64,000 bases of DNA, taken from IMG/VR virus record IMGVR_UViG_3300025018_000136, positions 1 to 64,000 of that record; one strand, given 5' to 3'. The notes beneath the pieces are model-generated. The model did not search any database. It was not told the DNA's origin and was given only the letters and a program-made list of their open reading frames with translations. Of this stretch, positions 4,484 to 36,527 are shown one piece after another. Position numbers and translations under genes: made by a program. Origin of the DNA: a virus (Duplodnaviria > Caudoviricetes). How positions within the stretch are numbered: position 1 is the stretch's first letter; every line of letters begins with the position of its first letter.

Positions 4484-6232
4484 ATGGAAAACGAATTATC
4501 AACACTCAAAGGTGTGGGTCCTACTACACTTGAGAAGTTAGAAACAGCAGGTATAAGTACATTGATGGCATTGGCTACAAGTTCTCCTGCAGAAGTTAGT
4601 TCTGTCGCGGGACTTAGTGAAAATGCTGCACGTAAGCTTATAAAACAAGCACGAGAAGGTCTTAGCTTAGGTTTCGAAAAAGCCAAAGAGTTTGCAAAGA
4701 AGAGAGATATTGTTGAAAAGATAAGTGTTGGTTGTGCTCCTTTTGATGAGATGTTGGGTGGAGGCTTTGAAAGCGGTGCTATTACAGAAGTATATGGTCA
4801 ATTTGGTTGTCTGTCCGGAGACACTATTATAAGAACCAGTAGACATGAAAAAGGACATAAACATCGTATAGATTGGATATATAAGCAATTCCACGAAAGA
4901 GAATCTTTAAATGAACACTTTAGATGGGATTTAGAAACACCAACATATATTCGTTCTTATAACGGAACAAACATCGGAAGACATCCAATAGAAGATGTGG
5001 TTTATAGTGGAGAAAAACAAGTTTATGAACTCGTTCTTGACAACGAATATAAATTAAAAGCTACTCCTGAACATAAAATTATGACTGATAGTGGATGGAT
5101 AGAAGTGCAAAATTTAACATCTGAACACTCTGTCATGTGCGATACACCAAACACTCGCAAAAACACACAAGGTCATAAAACAAACACACTTAGAGATTTT
5201 TATCTTTATGACGCTAAACACCACCCAAAGTGTAAAAAAAGTGGACATAAAGGGATTTCAATCCATAGAGCCATCTATGAAGCGTGTATAAATAACATAA
5301 CTATATCTGAATACGTGAAAATTGTTTATTCAGAACCAGATAAAGCACAGAAATTAAAATATGTAGACACGAATACATATGCAATACACCACAAAGACGG
5401 CAATCATTATAACAACGATATAGAAAACCTTGAGTTAGTTACACACGAAGAACATGTTAAAATTCATGGCTCAGAGTTGTATTCAAACTTCAATCAAGGA
5501 GTTCCAGAGTTTGTTAAAGTGAAGAGTGTTACAAAACTTGGTATAGAAAAAACATATGATATTGTGTGTGCAGAACCGTTCCATAATTTCAACGCTAATG
5601 AAATGATAGTGCATAACTCAGGCAAGACTCAACTATCGCATTTACTTGTTGTTAGAGCCCTTATAGAAAATCCCAATAATAAAGCAATATTCTTAGATAC
5701 AGAGAACACATTTAGGGATGATAGAATTATTGATTTTGCAGAAGCAAATGGATTAGACCCAGATGAAGCACTTGACAGAATATTTGTTGCAAGAGCTTAT
5801 AATTCTGACCACCAACAACTTTTGGTTGATGAAATTGAAAAGATGTTGCAACAAGACCAAACATTTAGGGTTATAGTTGTAGATAGTTTAACTTCTCATT
5901 TTAGGGCAGAATTTATTGGTAGAGGAACACTTGCCAGTAGACAACAACATCTTAATAAGCATATGCACCAGTTACTTAGATTAGCAGACCTTTATAATAT
6001 GGTTGTACTTTGTTCTAATCAGGTTATGAGTGCTCCTGATAGTTTTTATGGAGACCCTACAAAACCTATAGGCGGTCATATAGTTGGGCACAATTCCACT
6101 TTTCGTATTTATATGAGACCTGGAAAAGAAGGAAGTATTTATGCTAAGCTTGTGGACAGTCCGAATCTTCCTCAAACTGATTGTAACTTCTGGGTTACTA
6201 AAGATGGGTTTGCGGATGTGAAGCCAAAATGA
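4484..6232 (+). CDS. radA: Archaeal-type RadA recombinase with an intein
   Basis: N-terminal HhH (LKGVGPTT), ITEVYGQFG/SGKTQ, LDTENTFR, VVDSLTSHFRAEFIGRG, PIGGHIVGH. Confidence 0.95.
   Translation: MENELSTLKGVGPTTLEKLETAGISTLMALATSSPAEVSSVAGLSENAARKLIKQAREGLSLGFEKAKEFAKKRDIVEKISVGCAPFDEMLGGGFESGAITEVYGQFGCLSGDTIIRTSRHEKGHKHRIDWIYKQFHERESLNEHFRWDLETPTYIRSYNGTNIGRHPIEDVVYSGEKQVYELVLDNEYKLKATPEHKIMTDSGWIEVQNLTSEHSVMCDTPNTRKNTQGHKTNTLRDFYLYDAKHHPKCKKSGHKGISIHRAIYEACINNITISEYVKIVYSEPDKAQKLKYVDTNTYAIHHKDGNHYNNDIENLELVTHEEHVKIHGSELYSNFNQGVPEFVKVKSVTKLGIEKTYDIVCAEPFHNFNANEMIVHNSGKTQLSHLLVVRALIENPNNKAIFLDTENTFRDDRIIDFAEANGLDPDEALDRIFVARAYNSDHQQLLVDEIEKMLQQDQTFRVIVVDSLTSHFRAEFIGRGTLASRQQHLNKHMHQLLRLADLYNMVVLCSNQVMSAPDSFYGDPTKPIGGHIVGHNSTFRIYMRPGKEGSIYAKLVDSPNLPQTDCNFWVTKDGFADVKPK
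4808..5617 (+). mobile_element. RadA intein (270 aa) carrying an HNH endonuclease, inserted in Walker A
   Basis: CLSGDT...MIVHN followed by Ser; internal IHHKDGNHYNNDIENLELVTHEEH. Confidence 0.9.
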
Positions 6233-11014: not shown

Positions 11015-14000
11015 ATGACTACAGTATTTAATGAGAATGGTGCAAAAAGTATTTACTTTACTTTAACAGAGGATTTTGTTAATAAATATAAATGGAAACA
11101 ACCTAATTGGGGGCCTATAGGATATGTCACATATAAAAGAACCTACGCAAGGACTATGTCTAATGGAAAAAGTGAGGAGTATTGGAATACCATTCAGCGT
11201 GTCGTTGAGGGAATATTTACTATTCAGAAGCGTTATTGTTATATAAACAAGCTGCCCTGGAATCAATCTAAGGCACAAAAGAGTGCTCAAAGAATGTTTG
11301 AGTTGATGTGGGACTTTAAATTCACTCCACCAGGTCGTGGATTGTGGATGATGGGAACTGAAGCCATGTATGATAAAGGCAGTGCAGCTCTTATGAATTG
11401 TTTTAGTGGCGACACAGAATTTTATACAGATAAAGGCACAGTTAGATTTGAAGACGTTGTTGGAAATACTGTAAATGTACTAACAAAAGATAGAGAATTT
11501 AAACCAGCAGAAGTTAAAAGTTTTGGAAAACAAAAACTACAACGAACAGTATTTAAACCAGTTGGTTTAAGAAGTAATCATAGAATAGATTATGAAGTTA
11601 CAAAAGACCATAGGTGGATTCTTTCTAATGGAGAAGAAACAACATCCCTAAAAGTTGGAGATAGAGTGCGTTCAACTGTCAAACCATACGATTTCCACAC
11701 AGATATACAAGAAAAAGAGTATAAAAATGGAATTGTTCACGGATTAATGTTTGGAGATGGGTGGAAACACACATACTACCCACATAGATTTATGATTAGA
11801 TTATGCGGAGAAAAGAATTCTGCAGAAAACATAAAAATACTCACTGAGCATCCTGGGTTTATCAGTTCTACTAATCCACCATCATGTGATGGAGATTCTG
11901 TTGTAACAATAATTACAGAAGATATAGATATGAAACAGTTACCATATGATACGTCAATAGAGTATCAAATAGGGTTCGTTGATGGGTGGTTAAAAGCAGA
12001 TTCATGGTTAACTCCAAGCGGAAGCACATCACTCAACACTCAGAATTCAGAAGCTGCAGAATGGTTTATTAAGAATGCTAACATTCTAAATTACAATATT
12101 ACTGGTCATACATTGGATGAACGAGAAACTAATTATGGTAAAAGAAAAAACCCATTACACAGAATACTTCTTACAAAAGAAGATGTAGAATTTGTTGTAG
12201 AATCCATAATAGATGAAGGAAAAATAGAAGAAGTTTATTGTGTAGTAGAACCAGAAACACATACTTTCACTCTTGCTGGAGGACTTCCAACAGGAAATTG
12301 TGCTTTTGCAAGTACAGAAAACATTAATATTGATTTTGCTCAACCATTTATTTTTATGATGGATATGAGTATGCTTGGAGTTGGTGTTGGAAGCGACACC
12401 AGAGGAGCAGGAAAAATAACTATTAAACAACCAAAATTTGATGAAGAAGTTCATGTTGTTCCTGATACACGTGAAGGATGGGTTGATTTGTTAAAAAGAC
12501 TTCTTAATGCTTTTGTTGGTAAAGATACTTTACCTAAATCAGTAGACTACTCACTTGTTCGCCCAGCAGGCGAAATAATTAAGGGTTTCGGTGGTGTGGC
12601 TTCTGGGCCTGGGCCTCTTATTGAGATGTATGAGTCAATCGAGAACCTCTTGAACCTCAGGATTGGTCAAAAGATTACGACAACAGACATTGTAGATATA
12701 CATAACCTAATAGGTAGATGTGTCGTATCTGGAAATATTAGGCGCAGTGCTCAGATTATGTTTGGAGATTATGATGACCAAGCATTCCTTGATTTAAAGA
12801 ACCCAGATGTTAGTAAAGAAGAACTTATGCATCATAGGTGGGCTAGTAATAATTCTGTTTTTGTAAAGCCTGGAGATGATTATTCTAAAGTTGCAGAACT
12901 TACTGCTAAGAATGGAGAGCCAGGATATCTTTGGCTAGATAATAGTAAACAGTATTCTCGTATGAACGGAATAGTTGATAACAAAGATTATCGTGTGATG
13001 GGAACAAATCCTTCAATGCCTGCTGGAACATTGGTGTGTACGACAAAAGGAATATACCCTATAGAAAAATTAGAAGGACAAAAATTCTATGTTAAAAGTA
13101 TAGATGGTTCTATTTCTACAGCTGAATGTTTTAAATCTAAGAACGATAAAGAATTAATAGAAATAGAATTTAATAAAGGGATAAGTGTTAAATGTACAGA
13201 AGAACATCGGTGGCCTATCTACAAAGCACAAAAAAGTGAAGGAACACTAATAAAAACTTATGCTAAAGATTTGGTTGTTGGAGATTTAATTCCGCTATCA
13301 AGAAACGAACCACCTAGAATTACAGATGGAAACAACGACTTAACAATAGATGATGGATTCTTTTTAGGATATTTGCTTGGCGATGGTTGGATTTCTACAA
13401 GAAAATCTGAAAACAATGTTGGAGAAAAGGTGTTGGGTTTTACATTTGGAAAAGATTCTCTTCACTTATCAGATAAAATTCTAAATACGTTAAACGAATT
13501 TGGTAGTAAATGCAATGTAACTATCAACGATAAGGGATATGGAAATATACAAACATCAAACCAATCTGTTATAAAGAAAATAGAAGAAACGTACGGATGG
13601 TGTGGAAAAGACAAGATACCGACAAGTGTGTGGACTTCAAATGATAGATTTATACATGGATTTATAGATGGATTATTAAGTAGTGATGGTTGTGTTAGTA
13701 AAAACACCATAATTTTAGTAACATCAAGAAAGAATTTAGCTAAAGAATTCACAAAATTAATATCTTTTTTTGGTATAAAAAGCTCAATATTAGAAACAAC
13801 AACTACTGGAAACTTTCCAAATAAGAAAGATTATGATAAAACATACACGGTTTATAGAATTAAATTTTCAGGAACACAATTTTTAATGAGTGGATTGACT
13901 ATATCACATAAAGAGAAACAGAACATAAAAAAGGGTTCCTATATACAAAAGTCTAATACTATAAAAAATATTAAACGCATACCAAATGAAGATGTTTGGG

Positions 14001-14950
14001 ATATAACAGTTTACGATGACACTCACGTATTTCCATGTGAATATGTATATACAGGAAATTGCGGAGAGCAACCATTGGAAAATATGGAAATGTGTAACCT
14101 TGTAGAGACTTATCCTGGAAAACACGACACTTTAGCTGAATGGATTGAGACGCTCAAATACGCATATCTATATGCTAAAACAGTGACTTTATTGCCATCG
14201 CATAATGAGATTAGTAATGCTGTAATGATGAGAAATAGACGTATTGGTTGTAGTATGAGTGGTATCACACAAGCGTTTACTAAGTTTGGTAGAAGAGCAA
14301 TGCTTGAAGCTTCAGATAAAGGATATAATAAGATACAAGATTGGGATAAAAAATATTCTGATTGGCTTTGTATTCCTAGAAGTATTAAAGTTACAAGTAT
14401 TAAGCCAAGCGGAACTGTTAGTTTGCTTGGAGGAGTAACTCCAGGAGTCCACTATCCTGTTAGCGAATATTATATTAGAAATATTAGATTTCAAGAAGGG
14501 ACACCTCTATTAGATAAGCTTAGAGAATCTGGCTACAAAGTAGAAAAAGATTCTTATAGTCTTAATACTTGGGTTGTTAGTTTTCCAGTTAAAGAAGAGT
14601 TCTTCGATAGAGCTGTTACAGAAGTATCTATTTGGGAACAACTAGAAAATGCTGCCCAGATTCAAGAATATTGGGCTGACAATCAAGTGAGTGTGACAGT
14701 TAGTTTTAAACCAGAAGAAGCAGAACAAATAAAATATGCTCTTGAAATGTATGAGAGTAGATTGAAAAGTGTTAGTTTCTTACCTCACAAAGAGCATGGT
14801 TATGTTCAAGCACCATATATTCCTATTACAAAAGAAGAATATGAAAAGATGAATAAAGAAATTAGTGATGTTCGCGTCAAAGACAACGTCCACGACCAAG
14901 TTGAGAAATTTTGTGACGGAGATACTTGTCTTGTTGAGATTAAAAAATGA
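11015..14950 (+). CDS. nrdJ: Class II (AdoCbl-dependent) ribonucleotide reductase with two inteins
   Basis: PPGRGLW, SGNIRRSA, GTNP/CGEQ, TSIKPSGTVS, C-terminal CDGDTC. Confidence 0.93.
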   Translation: MTTVFNENGAKSIYFTLTEDFVNKYKWKQPNWGPIGYVTYKRTYARTMSNGKSEEYWNTIQRVVEGIFTIQKRYCYINKLPWNQSKAQKSAQRMFELMWDFKFTPPGRGLWMMGTEAMYDKGSAALMNCFSGDTEFYTDKGTVRFEDVVGNTVNVLTKDREFKPAEVKSFGKQKLQRTVFKPVGLRSNHRIDYEVTKDHRWILSNGEETTSLKVGDRVRSTVKPYDFHTDIQEKEYKNGIVHGLMFGDGWKHTYYPHRFMIRLCGEKNSAENIKILTEHPGFISSTNPPSCDGDSVVTIITEDIDMKQLPYDTSIEYQIGFVDGWLKADSWLTPSGSTSLNTQNSEAAEWFIKNANILNYNITGHTLDERETNYGKRKNPLHRILLTKEDVEFVVESIIDEGKIEEVYCVVEPETHTFTLAGGLPTGNCAFASTENINIDFAQPFIFMMDMSMLGVGVGSDTRGAGKITIKQPKFDEEVHVVPDTREGWVDLLKRLLNAFVGKDTLPKSVDYSLVRPAGEIIKGFGGVASGPGPLIEMYESIENLLNLRIGQKITTTDIVDIHNLIGRCVVSGNIRRSAQIMFGDYDDQAFLDLKNPDVSKEELMHHRWASNNSVFVKPGDDYSKVAELTAKNGEPGYLWLDNSKQYSRMNGIVDNKDYRVMGTNPSMPAGTLVCTTKGIYPIEKLEGQKFYVKSIDGSISTAECFKSKNDKELIEIEFNKGISVKCTEEHRWPIYKAQKSEGTLIKTYAKDLVVGDLIPLSRNEPPRITDGNNDLTIDDGFFLGYLLGDGWISTRKSENNVGEKVLGFTFGKDSLHLSDKILNTLNEFGSKCNVTINDKGYGNIQTSNQSVIKKIEETYGWCGKDKIPTSVWTSNDRFIHGFIDGLLSSDGCVSKNTIILVTSRKNLAKEFTKLISFFGIKSSILETTTTGNFPNKKDYDKTYTVYRIKFSGTQFLMSGLTISHKEKQNIKKGSYIQKSNTIKNIKRIPNEDVWDITVYDDTHVFPCEYVYTGNCGEQPLENMEMCNLVETYPGKHDTLAEWIETLKYAYLYAKTVTLLPSHNEISNAVMMRNRRIGCSMSGITQAFTKFGRRAMLEASDKGYNKIQDWDKKYSDWLCIPRSIKVTSIKPSGTVSLLGGVTPGVHYPVSEYYIRNIRFQEGTPLLDKLRESGYKVEKDSYSLNTWVVSFPVKEEFFDRAVTEVSIWEQLENAAQIQEYWADNQVSVTVSFKPEEAEQIKYALEMYESRLKSVSFLPHKEHGYVQAPYIPITKEEYEKMNKEISDVRVKDNVHDQVEKFCDGDTCLVEIKK
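11399..12298 (+). mobile_element. RNR intein 1 (300 aa, LAGLIDADG)
   Basis: CFSGDT...PTGN followed by Cys; GLMFGDG and GWLKADS motifs. Confidence 0.9.
13013..14059 (+). mobile_element. RNR intein 2 (349 aa, Ser-initiated, LAGLIDADG) at the thiyl-radical Cys
   Basis: GTNP|SMPAGT...YTGN|CGEQ; GYLLGDG and GLLSSDG motifs. Confidence 0.9.
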
Positions 14951-27200: not shown

Positions 27201-27241
27201 TTCTAAGGTTATAGCTCAAGGAACGAGTTTTAACCCTAGAA
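27201..27241. other. 41-nt imperfect hairpin
   Basis: TTCTAAGGTTA...TAACCCTAGAA outer arms (one mismatch); AGCTC/GAGTT inner stem. Confidence 0.55.
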
Positions 27242-27242
27242 A

Positions 27243-27285
27243 AACCGAAAGTTTTATATAGTAGAACTAACATATATAGTATGAT
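27243..27285 (+). promoter_or_regulatory. BRE/TATA promoter of the S-layer-like gene
   Basis: aaccgaaagtTTTATATAgtagaa. Confidence 0.65.
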
Positions 27286-27398
27286 ATCACGAAAATAGAG
27301 TGTTTTGTGTGATAATTAATATTCAACCATAAAGGCTTTTTTCTACGTCATTTTATTAGACTGTAGACTTAGGAAGCCAAGTTGGAGGGAAAAACAAA

Positions 27399-28964
27399 AT
27401 GGATAAAACAAAGATACTTGTTGGAGCTTTAACTCTTGCAGTTGCTTTAGCCGTAGTTTTTGCTGTTGGCATGTTCAATAGAATGAACGACGATGAAGTA
27501 AATGCTGTTCTAGCTGAACAAAAAGTACTTGTTCAAGAGGAGTATAAAGCTTCACTAGACAGTGCTAAAGAGTTGTTTCGACAAGAAATAGACGCAAAAG
27601 TAGCGGATTACGAAAGTAAGCTTTCCGAAAAGGAAACAGATATTGCCGCTAAAGCTGAAGAGATTGACGCATTGAACGCAGAAATTGCTGCGCTCGATGA
27701 TGAGGTTACTCAGCTACAAGAACCAGCAGTAGATGAATTCGTTGGTTACACCTTTGATGGAGTCGCTTTTGATGGCAACTTTGAAGGTACAATTGACAAC
27801 GGAGACCTTGCTAAACTGTTAGAAGACGAAATTCGATACGATGGCGAAAATTATGATTTTGAGGAAGTCCTATATCTTAGCGAAGACCTCTTGCCATTGT
27901 TAAATCTAGAAGGATTCGATGGTGCAGTTGGCCTTGGTATCACATCAGATAATGCAATCATCTACAAGTATGTTTTCGACGACCTAATCGTTGTTGATGG
28001 AAGTGAAGAGGAATTAGACATTACTTTCCTTGGAGCACCACTAACTATTATTGATTTCGACGGAAGCGAACTTACATATAGAACATCTGCAGAGCTTGCA
28101 GGCAGTACTGGAGACTCATTTGAAGTTGAGGGTAAAACTGTAACTATTATTGCTGTTAGTGATAATTCAGCTCTTATTGATGTTGATGGTGTTGCTAAAG
28201 CTGTAGACGAAGGAAACGCACGAACTATTAATGGTGTGCGTGTAGAAGTTAATGAGGTTTTCACTTCAGACTTCTCAGATTATACATACGTTAAATTCTT
28301 TGTTGGCGACGAAATTTCAGAGACTGTTGAGACAGGTGATGAATATACAGCCGATGATAGATATGAGTGGATTGTAGAATCTGACGCTATCGGTGTAGCA
28401 CTTGTAGAGCAGTATGACGACGAAGATGAAGCATTTAAAGTTGGAGATAGCATCTCTCTACCAAACGATTACGTAACGTTTAAGTTTGGTGAAGTCCTTG
28501 GACTCGATTATGAAGATGTTAAATTCAAGATTTCTGGAAATGACCTTGATGTTTCCTTTACAGGAGATATTGAGATTAATGGAAAGAGAATAGATGATGC
28601 AAAGTTTAGTGTCGACCTAGATACTCTTGAGTACGAATACAAATATAAGGACGATAAATTTGTAGAATCAGACTTTAGTTTGATTAAGTTTGTCTTCGAC
28701 GACCGCAGTGACTTTGATTTCTCAGTTGCTGGTGGAGAAGTTTCACTCTCTGGTGATAAAGACTACGTTTTCGCATACAGTGGAAACGAGTTTGTTGAAT
28801 CACTTGCTGATGCAACTAATATGAACGAAGATGACCACTATCTATTAGTTAATGGAGACTTGCTTTACAAGTCATCTGTGAACGAAGACGATGGCTACAA
28901 AGAGGTTGAGTTTGGACTTGTCAAAGACCTTGGCGACGTTGAAGCACAACTATTCGTTTATTAG
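27399..28964 (+). CDS. S-layer-like surface protein (N-terminal membrane anchor, coiled-coil stalk, acidic beta-rich S-layer domains)
   Basis: ITFLG, GKTVTIIAVS...IDVDG...TINGVRV, GDSISLPNDY resemble archaeal (DPANN/Methanococcales-type) S-layer proteins; GGAGG RBS. Confidence 0.65.
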   Translation: MDKTKILVGALTLAVALAVVFAVGMFNRMNDDEVNAVLAEQKVLVQEEYKASLDSAKELFRQEIDAKVADYESKLSEKETDIAAKAEEIDALNAEIAALDDEVTQLQEPAVDEFVGYTFDGVAFDGNFEGTIDNGDLAKLLEDEIRYDGENYDFEEVLYLSEDLLPLLNLEGFDGAVGLGITSDNAIIYKYVFDDLIVVDGSEEELDITFLGAPLTIIDFDGSELTYRTSAELAGSTGDSFEVEGKTVTIIAVSDNSALIDVDGVAKAVDEGNARTINGVRVEVNEVFTSDFSDYTYVKFFVGDEISETVETGDEYTADDRYEWIVESDAIGVALVEQYDDEDEAFKVGDSISLPNDYVTFKFGEVLGLDYEDVKFKISGNDLDVSFTGDIEINGKRIDDAKFSVDLDTLEYEYKYKDDKFVESDFSLIKFVFDDRSDFDFSVAGGEVSLSGDKDYVFAYSGNEFVESLADATNMNEDDHYLLVNGDLLYKSSVNEDDGYKEVEFGLVKDLGDVEAQLFVY

Positions 28965-29002
28965 GGGAGTAATCCCCGCTTTTTTCTTTTTTTTCTTTTT
29001 TT
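28964..29002 (+). terminator. GNRA hairpin plus long T tract
   Basis: GGGGA-GTAA-TCCCC followed by a T-rich run. Confidence 0.7.
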
Positions 29003-29013
29003 AATGAAGATGT

Positions 29014-29454
29014 ATGGAAAATTATATATACTTAATTATAATATTTGTTGTTAATATTTTAATCATAATAGTTACAAGAAAACACAGCACAATGGTTGCT
29101 GGATTGGATATTACGCTGACTGGATGTTTCTTATCTGGTTATTGGTTAAACTTTTCTTCTGGTGTATTAATATCCTTATTATTTATGATTAGTAGTTATG
29201 TCGCATTAATAGATATTACCCCAACAATGTTAATAACTATCCCAGTATCATTTATAGTTTTTATATGTGGAACGCTTACAGCCTCAACGAACATACCAAT
29301 AATGGTAGGAGTCATAATTGGGTTATTATTATATAGTCTTATATCAGACTTGTTAATTTTCAAGGTTTTTGGAACAGAAGACGTGTTCTTAATAATGTTT
29401 TCTGATATTAAAATGTTTGTAAGTAACATATTATTTTTTAGAATATTTTGGTGA
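29014..29454 (+). CDS. Polytopic membrane protein
   Basis: Four to five hydrophobic segments. Confidence 0.6.
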   Translation: MENYIYLIIIFVVNILIIIVTRKHSTMVAGLDITLTGCFLSGYWLNFSSGVLISLLFMISSYVALIDITPTMLITIPVSFIVFICGTLTASTNIPIMVGVIIGLLLYSLISDLLIFKVFGTEDVFLIMFSDIKMFVSNILFFRIFW

Positions 29455-29460
29455 GAAAAA

Positions 29461-29577
29461 ATGAACGAAAGAATGATGAAGTATCTTAATGATATAGTTG
29501 CTGTTCTTAAACAGATTATTAATGATGATAATCTTACTTCTGAAGATAAAGTAAGGCTTATAGGGATGATATTATGA
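29461..29577 (+). CDS. Small hypothetical protein, 38 aa
   Basis: ATG after GGTGAG; ATGA overlap with next ORF. Confidence 0.4.
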   Translation: MNERMMKYLNDIVAVLKQIINDDNLTSEDKVRLIGMIL

Positions 29578-29765
29578 GTTTTACATTTTCTGTTTTGTTT
29601 AGGGATAATTCTACACACAAAAAGAACAAATGGACACATCTTTTTTCTACATACGAAAAAAACTGGAAGGAAGATACAATAAGTTATTATAACAACAGCG
29701 AATATTTGTTTTCGCAAACTTTTCCAACATTTCTTGGAAGAGTTTATAAGTTTTTTAAAAGGTGA
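29574..29765 (+). CDS. Hypothetical protein
   Basis: Overlap-coupled ORF. Confidence 0.45.
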   Translation: MSFTFSVLFRDNSTHKKNKWTHLFSTYEKNWKEDTISYYNNSEYLFSQTFPTFLGRVYKFFKR

Positions 29766-29770
29766 ACAAA

Positions 29771-30052
29771 ATGGATTTAGAAAAAATCACACAAGATGAA
29801 TTTGAAGTTGTGCTGGACGAAAACGTATCTGCGTCAGAAGAGAGAACAAGGATGCTTAGACATGTTAAACAGTTGCGTGGTTATAATTTACACCACCACA
29901 AAGATTCTGTAGAATTCTTTTATGATAGGGATAACGATTTGTATGTTATGAGAGCACGTGGTATGAAAACTACTTTTAAACCAGACTCTCCAAAAGAAAC
30001 TTGGAAAGAGAGCTATATTCGTTATCAGAACGAAAATCCACATGCTCGTTAA
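29771..30052 (+). CDS. Hypothetical protein
   Basis: AGGTGA RBS; last + strand gene before the convergent junction. Confidence 0.55.
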   Translation: MDLEKITQDEFEVVLDENVSASEERTRMLRHVKQLRGYNLHHHKDSVEFFYDRDNDLYVMRARGMKTTFKPDSPKETWKESYIRYQNENPHAR

Positions 30053-30158
30053 ACGCATATAAGCGCGATTTAACAAGACTTTTTCTTAGCTTAGTAAAGT
30101 ACTATAGAATTAAAAAAGTAGCTAGGAACGCAACGGATTGCGTCCTAGTGTACTTTGT

Positions 30159-30428
30159 TTATTGTAATGCTGCTCTTCTCTTTGTAAACTGACTATAAAT
30201 CCAGTCTGCAACAGCAATAACAATTCCAGATACGATTGTAATCGCCTGGTCTAGGTCAGCAATTTGTACTCCAATAGCTATAATAGCTATAGGTGTTCCA
30301 AGGGAGACCACAGTTGTCATTAATCGTTTCCATTCAGGCCAATCGATGATTCCATCGATAAATGCGTTTTCTATCCACCCAAGGACTCCACGCAAAAGTG
30401 GAAACAACAGTGCTATATATTCGTTCAT
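30159..30428 (-). CDS. Holin-like membrane protein
   Basis: Multiple TM segments; distal end of the late operon. Confidence 0.45.
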   Translation of the reverse strand: MNEYIALLFPLLRGVLGWIENAFIDGIIDWPEWKRLMTTVVSLGTPIAIIAIGVQIADLDQAITIVSGIVIAVADWIYSQFTKRRAALQ

Positions 30429-30721
30429 TTTTTATCACCCGTGTCTTTTAGACTACATCTCATTATGTTTAGTAGTCCTAAAATAAATATGAATTTTGGT
30501 ATTATTTTAAAATAAAAAGTGTGAAAGACTTCTGGTTTAATTACTATTAAAAAAGAAGATAGTGCCTCTATAAATATTGTAGTAATAAGTGCTGCTGCAC
30601 TACCAACAATAATATTTCTATTTGAATTAAAATAAGAGTACCAATAGAGAAATGAAACTATTAAGGACACACTTATCAGTGTTATTGACAAACTATACGA
30701 TACTAAATGTTCCGATATCAT
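30425..30721 (-). CDS. Membrane protein (three TM segments)
   Basis: Hydrophobic segments. Confidence 0.55.
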   Translation of the reverse strand: MISEHLVSYSLSITLISVSLIVSFLYWYSYFNSNRNIIVGSAAALITTIFIEALSSFLIVIKPEVFHTFYFKIIPKFIFILGLLNIMRCSLKDTGDKK

Positions 30722-30723
30722 TT

Positions 30724-31002
30724 TTATATAACAAACCTCGAAAATACTTCTACCGCCTTTTCACCCAATGCAAGTAAAGCTAATACAGCTATTAACGCTA
30801 TGATTAGTTTATAAAACTTACCAGACATAAGTTTCAACAAAACCATTACTTCTCTATTATGTAATATATTCTGGTCATTCATCTGCAATATGTTATCTGT
30901 CATCTTATCTAGCTTTGAAGCTACATCAACCGTCAATTTGGCGTTCATTTTCGAAAGTTCTTTATATATTTCTATTGCTTCTCTATCTTCCACTATAATC
31001 AC
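30724..31002 (-). CDS. Coiled-coil + C-terminal TM protein (lysis-cassette-like)
   Basis: Helical N-terminus; LIIALIAVLALLALG. Confidence 0.45.
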   Translation of the reverse strand: MIIVEDREAIEIYKELSKMNAKLTVDVASKLDKMTDNILQMNDQNILHNREVMVLLKLMSGKFYKLIIALIAVLALLALGEKAVEVFSRFVI

Positions 31003-34000
31003 TTGTAAAGTAAAGTTACACTTTCATATGTAGGAGACGTTGCTGAAGTAGTGCTTCTATGAAGCTCCATTCTAAATCCAAAGCTACTACCAGTATTCGT
31101 GAATGTGTGAACCTCTCCTGGCGTGTAAGTCTCCCAATTGCTACCACCATCAGCAGTAACCGTATATATATCATTATCTATTAAAAGGTTTGAATAAGTT
31201 CTGAACTCGCACTGAGACACAACTTTATCAGTAATTCTAAAATCAGAAGTTGCTGTGCCAACAGTAGCTGCTGAGACCAACTTAAGTCTTCCACTAACTT
31301 CTTCTGTATTAAGATGAGTCATAATTGATGGGTCTTCGTCAAAATAGACTGTATAACTATTTTCCATTGAATTAATATTAGATATTGTGTCTCCAATCTC
31401 GTCTGGGTTAAGTTTCTCTACAAAGATATCGGATATACCAACGTTCTTCTTAGATATTTCTACAGATGTTGTAAACCCACTGTTACTTAAATTATGAGTA
31501 AATGATTGAACCCTGTTATATCCAGTTATACCACAATTAGCAACTGTTACAGATATAAGTTCTCCTGGGTTAAGAGTAGATAAACCATACGATGTAACTT
31601 GGCCACTGAAAACATCTTCTATTCCTTTAGCTAGTTCAAAGTCTGCTTTATCTTGAACCTCGTCTGTTGTAGTAAGGTCTCCATCAGTAATTATAAGGTC
31701 TTTAATCCACAAATCTGCTTGTGATGCGTCATCATTTTCAGATTTAAGCAATATAATGTTGTCCGATTCTTGTTTACCATAAACAAACACTCTGTTTGAA
31801 ATTGCTGTGTTGTCTTTACCATAACTATTTACACCAATAAGGTTAGAACCATAAGATATAGATTCATCATTGTTTATTACATCGTCTTGTGTAAAAGTTC
31901 TAAGATACCACTGCTCACCTTCATCAAAATACCACATATAACAGTCTAAGCCAGCACGTTTAAATATGTCTGTTATTACAGTCCATGCTTTTTTATGCTG
32001 ATATGAAATATTAATAAGCTCTGTTGGATAATCTGTAACAGATGTAGACCAACTAATTAAACCAGTCCCAGGATTATAAGTAGCTTCAGCCCACTCATCT
32101 CCATCCCAGAAAACCATAATAATGTCTGGAAAATCATTATATAGAATTTTTCCAACTGATTCTGCTGCAGTGGCTGCAACATGTGCTCCAGTAATAGTCT
32201 TATCAATAAGCTCTGGATAATCACGCCCATCTATATCTATATAGAATCCACTAGACATATCTGCTCCATAAGATACATTATCAATGTAACCTTTAAATAA
32301 TAATTGAGCAAGTGTATTTAAGCTAGCATAACGAATAGCGTTTCCTTCATTATATAAAACACTTACCTCGTTTTCACTCAATACTCTATTAGTCCAAAGT
32401 GCAATCTCGTCTATCTGAGAAGAAAGCCCATAAGAATAAGTCGTAGGAGAACCTATATATTTAAACGTTAAATCTGCTACCATCATCTCGCCAAAACTAT
32501 TAATGTGAGAACCATCAATATATAAGTTAACGTTTGCTGAAGTTTGTTCATTATAAAGATTACTATAAAGAGTTGTTATCTCATCATCTGTCAACGCTTT
32601 ATCAAAAACCATAATATCATCTATTAATCCGTTGAAATAATTACCTGACACATATCTCCCAACATAGAAATTTAGATTAGTTGCTGAAGGAATATCTGTT
32701 CGAATGCTAGTATTTGTTTTATGTTTTATACCATTAACATATCCTATTAATTCATCGTTTGTTTTACTAACAGTAAACGCAATATGAACCCATTCTCCAA
32801 GATAATCATCTATGCCTACAGTGTCGCTAAGAGGATAAAAAGTGTCCCCACCAGTCCCATATAATCTAGCATGCCATCTAGAACCAAGAGAATAATTTAA
32901 AAGTTCCCATTTTGTAGTATTAGCAACAATTCTACTATCTACAGAAGGAGCAATTGATGCTTTAACCCATAAAGCTACAGTAAATTCATCATTATCAACA
33001 TCTTCAAAACTAGAAGTTGAAAGATACGACGTAGAACCATTAAAGCTCATACAAGAATTTACAGAATTAAATCTGTTAGTACCATCAGTTGCGTTAGTAT
33101 TGGTTAAAGAACCCCCATAACTACTAAAATCATCAATAGTTGTAGATAAATCGTTATAAGAAAACGGATAATAACATCTTAAAGTAGCATCTGTCATATC
33201 CCAAGGAGTAGTTGTTGTTAATACAACATGATGCCAGGCAGTATCATTAAGTGTATCACTATCACCTATAGATACTATAGCATTATTAACATCTGGCTCT
33301 ATTCTAATATCGTTCCCGCTATCTATCTCAAAATGCCTATTGAAAGAATTTGGCGCATAATTAAAAATAGTTTCATGCTTACCCTCTTCGCCACGTTTAA
33401 TCCAGAAAGATATTGTAGAACCATTTTTATTAATAACAACATAATCAGTTAATTCTACATATGAATTAAAATAACCATTAATATTATATTTTTGGCCTAA
33501 CATATCTAAACTAGAAACTATCTTTCCAGTTGTATTATACGGAATAGTCATTCTATGATTATTTGTTATAGTGTATAATTTGCTAACTTCAGAGTCTGTT
33601 AACATAGATTTCACAAAGAATACGTCATCTATGTAACCCTCAAAAGTAGAAGGTGCAATATGATTAGAAGTAATATTTCCACCAATTTCAGCATTTCCTG
33701 CTCCATTACAAGTTTTAAAATCTGGATACAACACATTTGTTCCTTCTAAAACTCCATCTGCGTATACATAAATTCTTTTAGATATTCTTATATCATCATT
33801 ACCGTCATTATAAATCTGTAATATCTCATCGTCTGTCAGTGCCCTAGCCCAAATAGCAACATCGTCAATAGCTCCATCCATAAGATTAGTTGTAGAATCA
33901 TATGCTCCTATGTTTAAAGTTGTGCTTGTAGTAGCGTTTCCTCCAGTAACAGTAGTTGTTAATGTTTGTTTAACACCATTAATAAATAGTTCAACGTCTC

Positions 34001-36527
34001 CAACAACTCTAGTAGATGTGGTTGTTACTACATTTGTTCTTGCTACAACATGATACCATGTGCCTGTAGTTATTGTGCCTACAGAATAATATCTTCTTCC
34101 AGCAGTAGAACCCTGAGCTTCAACTCTTATTCTTCCATCTGTTTGAACATCAAACGTATGATATCCGTTATAAGAAGTTATTGTTCTAACGCTACTTAAA
34201 TTATCAACCTTAATCCAAGCAGAAGTTGTTTGTATATCTCTACTGTTTACACCGCTAAAACTAGTTTTCTGAAGATACTGATTTACACCATCTAAAACAA
34301 CAGCATTACTAAATTTACCGCTAGTATAAGTAGGACTATTATATTCAGTCATATCGTTGCTTCCGTATTCATCACCAGCGTCACTTTCCATCCAATAAAC
34401 TGATACTAAATCTGTAAATAAAGATTCTTGTGCGCCGAATACACCAACAACTTGATGCCACTCATTATCGGATAAATTAGTAGTACCTAAAACAGTTACG
34501 TCTTGGCCTGTTATTCTATCTTCTACGTGCCAACTAGCATATCCTGTTGTTACAGCAACAACAAATTGATAATTATCATTGTTATCAGTAGCGTTTCCGT
34601 TATCAGACTTATATATAAATGTTCTGCCTGCAGTGTCTGTTTTAATCCATGCACCAATAGTGAACGACATATCATCAACTGGACTAAGTCCTCCATCAGT
34701 ATTATCTAAAATAATATTGTTCTTAATGCCGTCAAAATAATAACATTTGTTTAAACTACCAAATCTATCTGTTGCAAGTTGAGCAGAATCTATATTTATG
34801 TTCTCTGTACCAGAACCGCTATTATAAGCTCTGGCTATATCACCGGAATTAAGTATACCATCATAAATTCTAAGGTCATCTATTGAGCCATCAAAAAAGT
34901 CACTAGGAGTAGCTGTGTCCCACTCTTGCCCAACAACAAACAAATCAGTGTTTGCAACTGTTACAGTTGTAGATAAATCAGTATCTACAGAATTACCATC
35001 AACGAAAAGTTCCCAGTCACCAGCACTATGGTCATAAGTAAAACCAACATGATGCCATTGGTCATCTCTAAGATTAGTAGAACCAGTAACTATTGGTGTA
35101 GAAACATTTTGAACTGAAATATAACCAGAAGTATTAATAAAAAACAATATTCTATTTGTTACTCCTGAAGAATCACTAACTCCTAGAATCATATCGTTTC
35201 CAGAACCAGAAGAGTTCGCTTTAATCCACGTAAAACATGACATATCAGAAGCTGCCAGCTCATCAGCAATATCACCATAAACATTTTTTACTACGCGCGC
35301 ATAACCATCTACAGGTTCTCCCCATGTAATAACTGCTGTGTTTGCGTCTGTTATTGATATATCTGTTGGCTCTATTCTATGGTGACTATTATCAAAACAA
35401 GCTATAAGAGGATATTCATCATTTAAAGAATGTGTAATATTCCACGTTGTACTAGAAGTGCCATTAGTATAAGTATAATCACCAGTTCTAAAACTAACGA
35501 TAGCATATCCTGACTGAGAACTATCAAAAGTAAGGGTTCTTATATCTGCGCTAGTATAATTATCAGTTAATGGTTCAATAACATATCCATTTAAATCATA
35601 TACTGTAACTATTGGTCTAGAAACATCAAAGTTGTGACTTATAGTCCAAGTTGTACTACTAATTGTTTGCGTATGTAAATAATCTTCAGCAACACTAGTC
35701 CTAAGAATTCTGACGTATCCTGTTGTTGCCTCTCCAAACTCTAGATAAAGAGAGTTCTCATCAAGTGCACGTGCAACTTCTGGCTGAATAATATTTCCAG
35801 AATCATCAAAACATTCAAAGTTTACATATTTAAAATTAAGATTGTGATTAACGAACCACGTAATACTACTTGTAAACGCATATAGGTGAATACTGGACGT
35901 ATCTGATGGATTAAGTTCTATATAATCTGTACTACCATCAAACTCAAATGCATCATTAATTTTACCAGTAACGTTTAACTCATTAGTATTATTCTGAGAA
36001 AGACCATCGAACCCATTAGCACTAGTATCAGTAACCGTCTTAGAATCTGTATTATCATTCATTCTATATTGGGCTACTAGGTTTGTTGAAAGAGTACCAT
36101 TATGAGATGGAGTATAACTCACATCGTTAGCATTACCATTAAACCCGTAAACTGCCTCTGCTCTAATCTGAAAAGTGCCATTGTTTCCTGAAATCTCATC
36201 AATAATATAATTACCACTATCACATTTATAATAGTGGTCAAGACCAGTTAAAAAATTAATATCTTGAGGAACACGATATCCTCCATAGATTGACACCAGT
36301 TCGCCGCCACCAAATGTGTTTAAAAACTCACCATTACTATTAGTAACCCTAAGATTAAATCTACCAAGACTATCAGTCACAGATTTAACAACTTGACCAC
36401 TAATCACATTGTTATCACTAGTAGTACTGCTCTGAGAATCCATAATTGTATGTACAACATCAGAATCATCTTTTATTTGAACCCTAAAGCTTGGACGGGC
36501 AGCATCAGTCTCAGTCAACGAAGTCAT
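30999..36527 (-). CDS. Tail hub/tip protein with a large insertion of LamG (ConA-like) domains
   Basis: Hub-like N-terminus resumes at LFKGYIDNV; WHHV/WHQV/WYHV/WVHI and DGxIDD LamG motifs; follows Dit and TMP. Confidence 0.75.
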   Translation of the reverse strand: MTSLTETDAARPSFRVQIKDDSDVVHTIMDSQSSTTSDNNVISGQVVKSVTDSLGRFNLRVTNSNGEFLNTFGGGELVSIYGGYRVPQDINFLTGLDHYYKCDSGNYIIDEISGNNGTFQIRAEAVYGFNGNANDVSYTPSHNGTLSTNLVAQYRMNDNTDSKTVTDTSANGFDGLSQNNTNELNVTGKINDAFEFDGSTDYIELNPSDTSSIHLYAFTSSITWFVNHNLNFKYVNFECFDDSGNIIQPEVARALDENSLYLEFGEATTGYVRILRTSVAEDYLHTQTISSTTWTISHNFDVSRPIVTVYDLNGYVIEPLTDNYTSADIRTLTFDSSQSGYAIVSFRTGDYTYTNGTSSTTWNITHSLNDEYPLIACFDNSHHRIEPTDISITDANTAVITWGEPVDGYARVVKNVYGDIADELAASDMSCFTWIKANSSGSGNDMILGVSDSSGVTNRILFFINTSGYISVQNVSTPIVTGSTNLRDDQWHHVGFTYDHSAGDWELFVDGNSVDTDLSTTVTVANTDLFVVGQEWDTATPSDFFDGSIDDLRIYDGILNSGDIARAYNSGSGTENINIDSAQLATDRFGSLNKCYYFDGIKNNIILDNTDGGLSPVDDMSFTIGAWIKTDTAGRTFIYKSDNGNATDNNDNYQFVVAVTTGYASWHVEDRITGQDVTVLGTTNLSDNEWHQVVGVFGAQESLFTDLVSVYWMESDAGDEYGSNDMTEYNSPTYTSGKFSNAVVLDGVNQYLQKTSFSGVNSRDIQTTSAWIKVDNLSSVRTITSYNGYHTFDVQTDGRIRVEAQGSTAGRRYYSVGTITTGTWYHVVARTNVVTTTSTRVVGDVELFINGVKQTLTTTVTGGNATTSTTLNIGAYDSTTNLMDGAIDDVAIWARALTDDEILQIYNDGNDDIRISKRIYVYADGVLEGTNVLYPDFKTCNGAGNAEIGGNITSNHIAPSTFEGYIDDVFFVKSMLTDSEVSKLYTITNNHRMTIPYNTTGKIVSSLDMLGQKYNINGYFNSYVELTDYVVINKNGSTISFWIKRGEEGKHETIFNYAPNSFNRHFEIDSGNDIRIEPDVNNAIVSIGDSDTLNDTAWHHVVLTTTTPWDMTDATLRCYYPFSYNDLSTTIDDFSSYGGSLTNTNATDGTNRFNSVNSCMSFNGSTSYLSTSSFEDVDNDEFTVALWVKASIAPSVDSRIVANTTKWELLNYSLGSRWHARLYGTGGDTFYPLSDTVGIDDYLGEWVHIAFTVSKTNDELIGYVNGIKHKTNTSIRTDIPSATNLNFYVGRYVSGNYFNGLIDDIMVFDKALTDDEITTLYSNLYNEQTSANVNLYIDGSHINSFGEMMVADLTFKYIGSPTTYSYGLSSQIDEIALWTNRVLSENEVSVLYNEGNAIRYASLNTLAQLLFKGYIDNVSYGADMSSGFYIDIDGRDYPELIDKTITGAHVAATAAESVGKILYNDFPDIIMVFWDGDEWAEATYNPGTGLISWSTSVTDYPTELINISYQHKKAWTVITDIFKRAGLDCYMWYFDEGEQWYLRTFTQDDVINNDESISYGSNLIGVNSYGKDNTAISNRVFVYGKQESDNIILLKSENDDASQADLWIKDLIITDGDLTTTDEVQDKADFELAKGIEDVFSGQVTSYGLSTLNPGELISVTVANCGITGYNRVQSFTHNLSNSGFTTSVEISKKNVGISDIFVEKLNPDEIGDTISNINSMENSYTVYFDEDPSIMTHLNTEEVSGRLKLVSAATVGTATSDFRITDKVVSQCEFRTYSNLLIDNDIYTVTADGGSNWETYTPGEVHTFTNTGSSFGFRMELHRSTTSATSPTYESVTLLYK

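Follow-up and report, generated by a model that had tools for sequence, protein, structure and literature searches.

A Virus-Encoded Homolog of Archaeal S-Layer Proteins with a Predicted Membrane Anchor and Stalk

Introduction

S-layers are the sole wall of most archaea, the first thing met by a virus and the last barrier on its exit. What, then, is a gene resembling those of archaeal S-layer proteins doing in the genome of a tailed virus? The question is raised by positions 27201–29454 of a 64,000-nucleotide stretch of DNA (the window, positions 1 to 64,000 of IMGVR_UViG_3300025018_000136, Caudoviricetes), itself part of a 77-kb IMG/VR virus record. An initial annotation, made from the DNA letters and their translations, had described there a 521-aa S-layer-like protein, here called P0001, lying in an insulated expression cassette, and had proposed that the virus remodels or cloaks the host cell surface. 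The sequence, profile, and structure comparisons presented here bear on what P0001 is, how it differs from its cellular relatives, where its gene sits and what it may do. The coding features, with residue numbers of P0001, are the following.

27399–28964, + strand: coding sequence of the viral S-layer-like protein P0001, 521 aa (open reading frame (ORF) call)
27399–27482, + strand: N-terminal membrane anchor, residues 1–28 (hydrophobic window, family comparison, model helix 2–28)
27489–27716, + strand: helical stalk, residues 31–106 (model helix with a predicted local distance difference test (pLDDT) score of 75–93; heptad scan)
27732–28961, + strand: all-beta ectodomain, residues 112–521 (homology to the central, lattice or canopy, part of DPANN S_layer_C proteins)

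Homology to Archaeal S-Layer Proteins

Sequence and fold both identify P0001 as a virus-encoded homolog of archaeal S-layer proteins: BLASTP, hidden Markov model (HMM), profile–profile, and fold comparisons all agree with the S-layer-like identity first proposed from motifs. PF05124 (S_layer_C) is found above its cut-off in homologs of another layout (P0033, P0059, and P0116), and phmmer connects P0001 with PF05124-bearing proteins at E values of 1e-30 to 7e-22. BLASTP aligns P0001 to P0033 with 32% identity over 270 aa (E 5e-37). The HMM of the viral family matches cellular proteins at E 1e-62 to 1e-126 (1e-62 to 1e-85 for 11 S-layer-type ORFs of DPANN genomes), mostly across the entire ectodomain. 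At the profile–profile level, hhalign pairs viral positions 119–521 with cellular positions 100–573 over 392 columns (probability 100, E 2.3e-69). PF05124 is carried by all six cellular proteins that were scanned. The motifs on which the first reading had relied (ITFLG, KTVTII...IDVDG...TINGVRV, and SLPNDY) all lie within the block aligning to S_layer_C proteins, where FLG, VDG, T(V/I)NG, and LPN form conserved columns. Direct searches of P0001 against Pfam and PHROGs returned coiled-coil noise alone (DUF4407 below cut-off and “hol-like chemotaxis”).

The DPANN connection drawn at the outset also holds. Cellular relatives were found in genomes of Woesearchaeota, Aenigmatarchaeota, and Nanoarchaeia, one of the contigs also encoding enolase. 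Query residues 112–391 have a match in 69 of 401 DPANN genomes, mostly one per genome and mostly in frames of 640–830 aa.

The AlphaFold2 model of P0001, computed with 63 relatives, has a pLDDT of 92.4 and consists of a helix at residues 2–28, a second one at 31–106, and strands alone from 117 to 520; the model of the ectodomain by itself reaches 96.5. For both models, the top match and the only clear one is the Methanosarcina DUF1608 structure 3u2g/3u2h (Foldseek E 3.3e-6, probability 1.00), with Z scores of 9.0–9.3, 213–218 aligned residues and a root mean square deviation of 5.9–7.4 Å. When the ectodomain model was compared with 48,161 chains, 3u2h was the sole one with Z ≥ 8 (Z 9.0, 216/256 residues aligned), so that the structural comparison with S-layer domains, proposed earlier as a check, gave a match above background. 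The two-subdomain beta-sandwich is thus common to the P0001 model and to MA0829 of Methanosarcina acetivorans (3U2G/3U2H, PF07752), although there is no match at the sequence level and about 190 residues of the viral ectodomain are left uncovered. PF07752 itself is not matched anywhere in the 77-kb record at E ≤ 10, whereas the control genome of M. acetivorans matches. Among the viral structures of BFVD, no credible match to the P0001 model was found.

Replacement of the Split Anchor Domain

How does the viral protein differ from the cellular ones? In the latter, PF05124 covers both chain ends (for example, residues 38–673 align onto profile positions 2–174), and the virus-homologous part lies between them. 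The viral protein thus corresponds to the insert between two anchor halves. PF05124 is absent from P0001 (E ≤ 0.1) and from 63 of 63 family members (E ≤ 0.001). The cellular profile detects PDB entry 9FSA (E 3.4e-10), the dimeric anchor domain made of residues 24–75 and 484–576 of the Methanococcus voltae S-layer protein (Buhlheller et al. 2024, PMC11410804). The same entry is unmatched by the viral profile at E ≤ 1, and this profile found nothing real by sequence among solved structures. For the S-layer proteins of Methanococcus, Pyrococcus, and Thermococcus, SymProFold predicts domains arranged in a manner analogous to that in the Methanosarcina crystal structure (PMC11410804). As read from these alignments, the split anchor domain is replaced in P0001 by a predicted membrane anchor and a stalk. 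In the host protein the two termini of the insert converge on the anchor domain, and the stalk is therefore expected to present the module in the orientation that it has in the host wall.

Composition, ORF, and model agree on the very acidic 521-aa protein with an N-terminal hydrophobic anchor that had been described. Asp and Glu make up 24.2% of the residues, Lys and Arg 7.1%, and there is no Cys. The hydrophobic segment covers approximately residues 6–25 and is preceded by MDKTK, as in a signal-anchor without Cys. The coiled coil of about 80 aa announced for the next segment is borne out as a 76-residue helix in the model, but the heptad scan finds clean heptads only at about residues 66–106, so that the canonical pattern extends over roughly half of it.

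The viral layout had been said to differ from that of host S-layer proteins, and the signal-peptide test agrees. The pattern ..GAT(L/I)xGA.., mostly followed by DYPxPF, is seen in 10 of 14 cellular forms, and the cellular proteins combine a cleavable-looking signal peptide with the split anchor domain, whereas P0001 has a plain hydrophobic segment followed by a helix. About one-tenth of the viral-type members retain the host signal-peptide pattern (IKK..G.GA..GATLTG) with a Cys replacing the host Ala, a substitution through which the signal-peptidase I site would become a lipobox. One member with such a host-type signal peptide and Cys sits in a viral context. The retained pattern, like the cassette plan and the tree described below, is a further sign that the viral genes descend from those of hosts.

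A Viral Family in a Conserved Slot

The virus genome is organized as two converging arms, a + strand arm extending to about 30 kb and an opposite − strand arm. Genes for RadA and a B12-type ribonucleotide reductase, each interrupted by an intein, lie on the + arm together with those for an RFC-like clamp loader, a family B DNA polymerase, methylases, and two nucleases (Metallophos and PDDEXK). The − arm encodes a portal protein with an intein, the capsid protein, the tail tube, the tape-measure protein, and an 1842-aa tail protein. RadA, PolB, RFC, and ribonucleotide reductase on one side, together with portal, tape-measure, tail tube, and capsid proteins on the other, mark the virus as tailed and its replication genes as archaeal in type. 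The gene of P0001 had been placed outside both operons. It is rather the last unit of the + strand replication arm, a position conserved among relatives, and the 146-aa ORF downstream is a separate unit. Across from this slot is the end of the tail-fibre arm, with a fibre protein that matches Laminin_G_3 seven times.

A word-indexed homolog search had given merely two relatives of P0001, and the family was revealed by exhaustive phmmer searches, which returned 553 cluster representatives at E ≤ 1e-3, of which 370 reach E ≤ 1e-10; with few exceptions they are 470–560 aa long. All 152 members examined are very acidic; 145 of them have an N-terminal hydrophobic segment, and about 60 (~40%) add a lipobox such as LTGC. 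The median linker of the family is 91 aa. Nine genomic contexts were inspected (L001, L002, L004, L005/L006, the P0040 contig, L047, and four IMG/VR records reached via the capsid protein), and members beyond these are called viral-type by their length. All nine are virus-like contigs, with protein identities of 25–50%. Where the flank permits, the same small genes come ahead of it, namely that of a PDDEXK nuclease and frequently that of a Metallophos or RNase H-like nuclease, and the gene itself closes the replication arm. The presence in related viral genomes that had been called for is thus observed, with the same gene order in nine viral contexts. A separate, alignment-based search for related loci in genome contigs found none. 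Between the S-layer-like gene and the tail-fibre arm, relatives encode small membrane proteins, and in some of them a Phage_holin_3_3 protein or transglutaminase-like proteases adjoin the S-layer-like gene.

One exception is informative. L066 (G408), a 111-kb relative with direct terminal repeats and a capsid protein 79% identical, has no homolog of P0001. An unrelated 235-aa acidic lipoprotein (L066:14379–15086, lipobox LLAGC) occupies the slot there, after the same small genes and facing the tail-protein gene. Because of this replacement, the slot looks like a conserved place for an exported, anchored protein with an exchangeable outer part. The picture of an insulated, one-off insert therefore gives way to that of a fixed place in a large virus group, although one close relative has another lipoprotein there.

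A sister group (P0041, P0078, P0095, P0137, and P0146) of about 690 aa has the same canopy module (HMM E ~1e-90 to 1e-103) in another layout: signal peptide, Pro/Thr-rich linker, C-terminal membrane anchor and Lys-rich tail, with hardly any sequons. A P0041-type locus, L011:5615–7693, lies on another virus-like contig with small ORFs in one direction, an HNH gene, and a weak head-protein match. Two anchored viral-type members, L042:80–1738 (552 aa, lipobox) and L045:3788–5230 (480 aa, signal-anchor), are found on short contigs binned in the DPANN genomes G221 and G305. These contigs may be viral ones that were binned there, or proviruses, and might serve to connect viruses with their hosts.

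Expression Cassette

The elements surrounding the coding sequence are these.

27201–27241, + strand: hairpin separating the promoter from the PDDEXK nuclease gene (RNA fold −15.1 kcal/mol, z −4.5, 0/200 shuffles as good)
27245–27261, + strand: archaeal-type promoter, a CCGAAAG resembling the B recognition element (BRE), then the TATA box TTTTATATA (read from the sequence)
27285–27398, + strand: inferred 5′ leader of ~110 nt including GGAGG (start near 27285 deduced from the TATA position)
28964–29003, + strand: terminator, a GGGGA-GTAA-TCCCC hairpin followed by three T runs (sequence and fold)

All the signals named in the initial annotation (upstream hairpin, BRE/TATA, leader of about 110 nt, GGAGG ribosome-binding site, and GNRA/T-tract terminator) could be located, and they are conserved in relatives. 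The upstream hairpin probably ends the preceding unit or insulates the cassette. The ribosome-binding site GGAGG lies at 27384–27388, 10 nt ahead of the ATG. An AAAAAC(C)GAAA-N-TATA block is kept upstream of the orthologs in L001 and L004, whose proteins are merely 50 and 32% identical, and a hairpin followed by a T run is found again 3′ of four orthologs, those of L001, L002, and L004 included, although the letters of the stem have changed. Such conservation of promoter block and terminator at diverged orthologs indicates that these signals are not due to chance. Scanning the window with a generic BRE/TATA pattern told little, and the pattern missed the promoter of the S-layer-like gene itself; a sigma-70 promoter scan was set aside as inapplicable to archaea.

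In cellular DPANN S-layer genes, CGAAA..TTTATAAA lies 132–223 nt ahead of the ATG, the ribosome-binding site is GGAGGTG and the terminators contain T runs. The viral cassette follows the same plan as these host genes. Leaders of 105–195 nt are likewise implied for the cellular genes. The viral leader folds at −27.8 kcal/mol (z −3.7 vs shuffles), with GGAGG partly paired in the best fold; folding in the 27285–27400 region may bear on translation control or mRNA stability.

Proposed Function

Beside the observed homology, domain swap, viral location, conserved cassette, and wide distribution stands a proposal for what P0001 does. It could be a viral, self-anchored version of the host S-layer subunit, which would be tethered to the membrane, join or replace the S-layer and change the displayed surface; we regard this proposal as evenly poised between right and wrong. 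The module kept is the ~400-residue beta-rich part from which the outer lattice (“canopy”) of Methanococcus-type and DPANN S_layer_C proteins is built. The split domain that forms their dimeric anchor is lost, and its place is taken by an N-terminal membrane anchor and a helix of ~11 nm; the predicted tether is a simple transmembrane helix in P0001, and many relatives have a lipoprotein signal instead. The gene would be transcribed as its own strongly signalled unit, and high expression is predicted from this separate unit. The protein would then be exported but stay fixed by its N-terminus in the membrane of the infected DPANN cell. A display outside the membrane is suggested by the anchor or lipobox, the extreme acidity, and the S-layer ancestry taken together. 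The canopy module would stand at the level of the host S-layer and join or replace the lattice. The altered surface might finally act toward other virions, by superinfection exclusion or by keeping progeny from re-binding. Among these purposes, superinfection exclusion or receptor masking is tentatively ranked first. A role at the interface between virus and cell surface is suggested by the exchangeable slot near tail-fibre genes, by the interleaving with host genes and by the mild lack of sequons, the last two of which are described below.

Several points weigh against this proposal. P0001 is 27–36% identical to any cellular homolog found, and in a FastTree tree of the 398 shared columns its own 21-row clade contains viral-type rows only, which makes co-assembly with a present-day host lattice uncertain. 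The phylogenetic comparison with DPANN S-layer genes, advised in the initial annotation, has two sides. Outside this clade, cellular and viral-type rows interleave and the starred branches force at least two label changes, which suggests more than one virus–host exchange in a quick tree with many open forks. N-glycosylation sequons, invoked above for a surface role, are slightly underrepresented on the viral side. There are none in P0001, the observed/expected ratio is 0.81 for viral versus 0.92 for cellular sequences, and sequences without any sequon number 39/129 and 1/14, respectively (p 0.01, the sequences not being independent), so that the test is only weakly positive. The cellular DPANN S_layer_C proteins, moreover, are taken as S-layer proteins by family assignment only; according to a 2023 preprint, no S-layer protein had been determined experimentally for DPANN archaea.

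The host is the last of these points. It would be a DPANN archaeon, judging from the distribution of homologs and from habitat, near-identical DNA having been found solely in aquifer and groundwater metagenomes. A search for the capsid protein in the 401 DPANN genomes gave three distant matches, too weak to name a host. Two other candidates were rejected: a magrovirus with a marine group II host, in view of the groundwater habitat and the DPANN relatives, and a bacterial host, which the lipobox had suggested, in view of the replication genes, the promoter, and the cellular homologs, all of them archaeal.

A wider form of the proposal, that DPANN tailed viruses routinely carry a self-anchored copy of the lattice module, which would co-assemble with or replace the wall and be swapped back and forth with host genes, is possible, though doubtful at present.

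The alternative that survives best, though unlikely, is that P0001 helps release. A tethered, faulty subunit devoid of the anchor domain would enter the lattice late and open the S-layer for holin-type lysis, as a counterpart of spanin or endolysin. How tailed archaeal viruses breach S-layers is not understood (PMC12596118), which leaves room for such a helper. The gene always lies beside the region of small membrane proteins, where a holin-family protein or transglutaminase-like proteases occur in relatives, and the family occurs very widely among these viruses. The N-terminal anchor and long helix of P0001 are similar to the i-spanin layout, but the PHROG matches are weak coiled-coil ones (E 4e-4 and worse), with no spanin or lysis match beyond this noise. 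The gene is, however, on the replication-arm strand with its own promoter, and not within the putative lysis genes. It also appears dispensable, since the close relative with terminal repeats has no homolog of P0001. Transglut_core has no match in this genome, so that the protease adjoining the gene in relatives is not present here.

Less probable still is a contribution to envelope upkeep, or its re-purposing, in which a firmly anchored subunit supplied by the virus would keep the small cell intact during a long infection or alter attachment to a partner cell, the latter as the initial annotation had also envisaged. The virus does carry other host-like genes (ribonucleotide reductase, an IMPDH/GMP-reductase family protein, RadA, and RFC), and the expression signals of the cassette are like those of host S-layer genes. 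These arguments are purely circumstantial; the low identity to cellular proteins argues against a simple replacement, and the other lipoprotein in the slot of the close relative argues against a general need.

A virion or entry protein, that is, a tail or envelope component binding or fusing with the host surface and related to class II fusion proteins, is very improbable. Residues 229–305, a 77-residue sandwich, form a second tier of structural matches with domain I of class II fusion proteins and with archaeal Fsx1, and the P0041-type sister group combines a signal peptide with a C-terminal membrane anchor on another virus-like contig. The Z scores of 6–7 are nevertheless at background level, and a likeness to class II fusion proteins was previously reported for the Methanosarcina S-layer fold itself (PMC5744192). 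The N-terminal anchor, the location in the replication arm and the absence of a membrane from tailed virions also disagree with this role, and P0001 lacks both the three-domain layout and the C-terminal anchor of class II fusion proteins and of the fusexin Fsx1.

That a host S-layer gene fragment was misassembled into a viral contig, which its homology to host genes could suggest, is scarcely credible: near-identical low-depth contigs from three other groundwater runs independently span promoter and start (27270–27524) and stop and terminator (28478–29294 and 28911–29161) with only two protein differences, both conservative (V192I and I331V), the gene order is shared by nine viral contexts including distant relatives, and the architecture is unlike all cellular forms seen.

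Comparison with Known Systems

The nearest known proteins are the PF05124 S-layer proteins (Methanococcus voltae/vannielii type and those of ~700 aa in DPANN archaea). They share with P0001 the central region, the acidity, and the all-beta character, and their genes share BRE/TATA, a long leader, GGAGG, and a T-run terminator with the viral gene, as well as the signal-peptide pattern with some viral relatives. The split N- and C-terminal domain is theirs, whereas P0001 has a transmembrane tether and a stalk, is virus-encoded and is at most 36% identical.

SlaB of Sulfolobales also combines a membrane anchor, a coiled-coil stalk, and beta domains above the membrane. It is a separate subunit that holds SlaA, and its anchor is C-terminal. 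The parts are thus similar to those of P0001 and in the opposite order, the anchor of P0001 being N-terminal, and no sequence or fold match was seen.

Small lipoproteins for superinfection exclusion, such as Llp of T5, Cor of phi80 and N15, and Ltp of TP-J34, bind the receptor or block DNA entry. As is predicted for P0001, they are anchored extracytoplasmic viral proteins, and like its gene theirs have an expression unit of their own near tail-fibre genes and are replaceable between relatives. P0001 differs in being a 521-aa copy of a host wall protein. There is no sequence relation, and the PHROG matches are noise. As for the spanin comparison made above, i-spanins pair with an outer-membrane lipoprotein inside a lysis cassette, and archaea, the probable hosts here, as a rule lack an outer membrane.

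A literature search, in which subscription journals were not covered, found no description of a viral, phage- or prophage-encoded S-layer protein. Such a gene goes unmentioned in papers on the viruses of DPANN archaea and of groundwater, and in a 2026 review on S-layers and virus specificity. The protein family and the fold are already known; the new points are that the gene is viral, that a tether takes the place of the anchor and that the family is so broad. A widespread viral gene that clearly descends from the lattice part of an S-layer protein, with a predicted membrane tether of its own, provides a handle on the interplay between virus and wall in uncultivated, ultra-small archaea, and the gene can serve as an indirect host marker for these viruses. 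P0001 is also a natural “minimal” S-layer module, which could be studied in tractable Methanococcus strains having the same protein family. If routine carriage and swapping were true, viruses would be manipulators of archaeal S-layers and a reservoir for S-layer evolution.

Surroundings of the Cassette

The gene following the cassette is listed separately.

29014–29454, + strand: 146-aa hydrophobic ORF, first gene of a small downstream operon, outside the cassette

This ORF has no Pfam or PHROG match and no counterpart 3′ of the ortholog in L001. It opens a small + strand operon (29014–30052) of four ORFs of 146, ~38, 63, and 96 aa, which overlap at their stop and start codons or lie a few bases apart. 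A second small operon on the − strand (30159–31002) has three ORFs of 89, 98, and 92 aa. Five ORFs of the two operons (29014–31002) were scanned, with no Pfam or PHROG match for any of them. The 146-aa ORF and the three − strand ORFs, which lie between the S-layer-like gene and the tail protein, appear hydrophobic, and the ORFs of these operons are candidate holin-like genes. No tRNAs were found in this virus genome.

The 1842-aa tail protein (30999–36527) has pentaxin-like and sialidase N-terminal-like matches in addition to its seven Laminin_G_3 ones; these many lectin-type modules fit with a glycan or S-layer receptor. The inteins that split RadA, the ribonucleotide reductase, and the portal protein (4484–6232, 11015–14950, and 60167–62830 of the window) have homing-endonuclease domains, and the relative G408 has an intein in its DNA polymerase.

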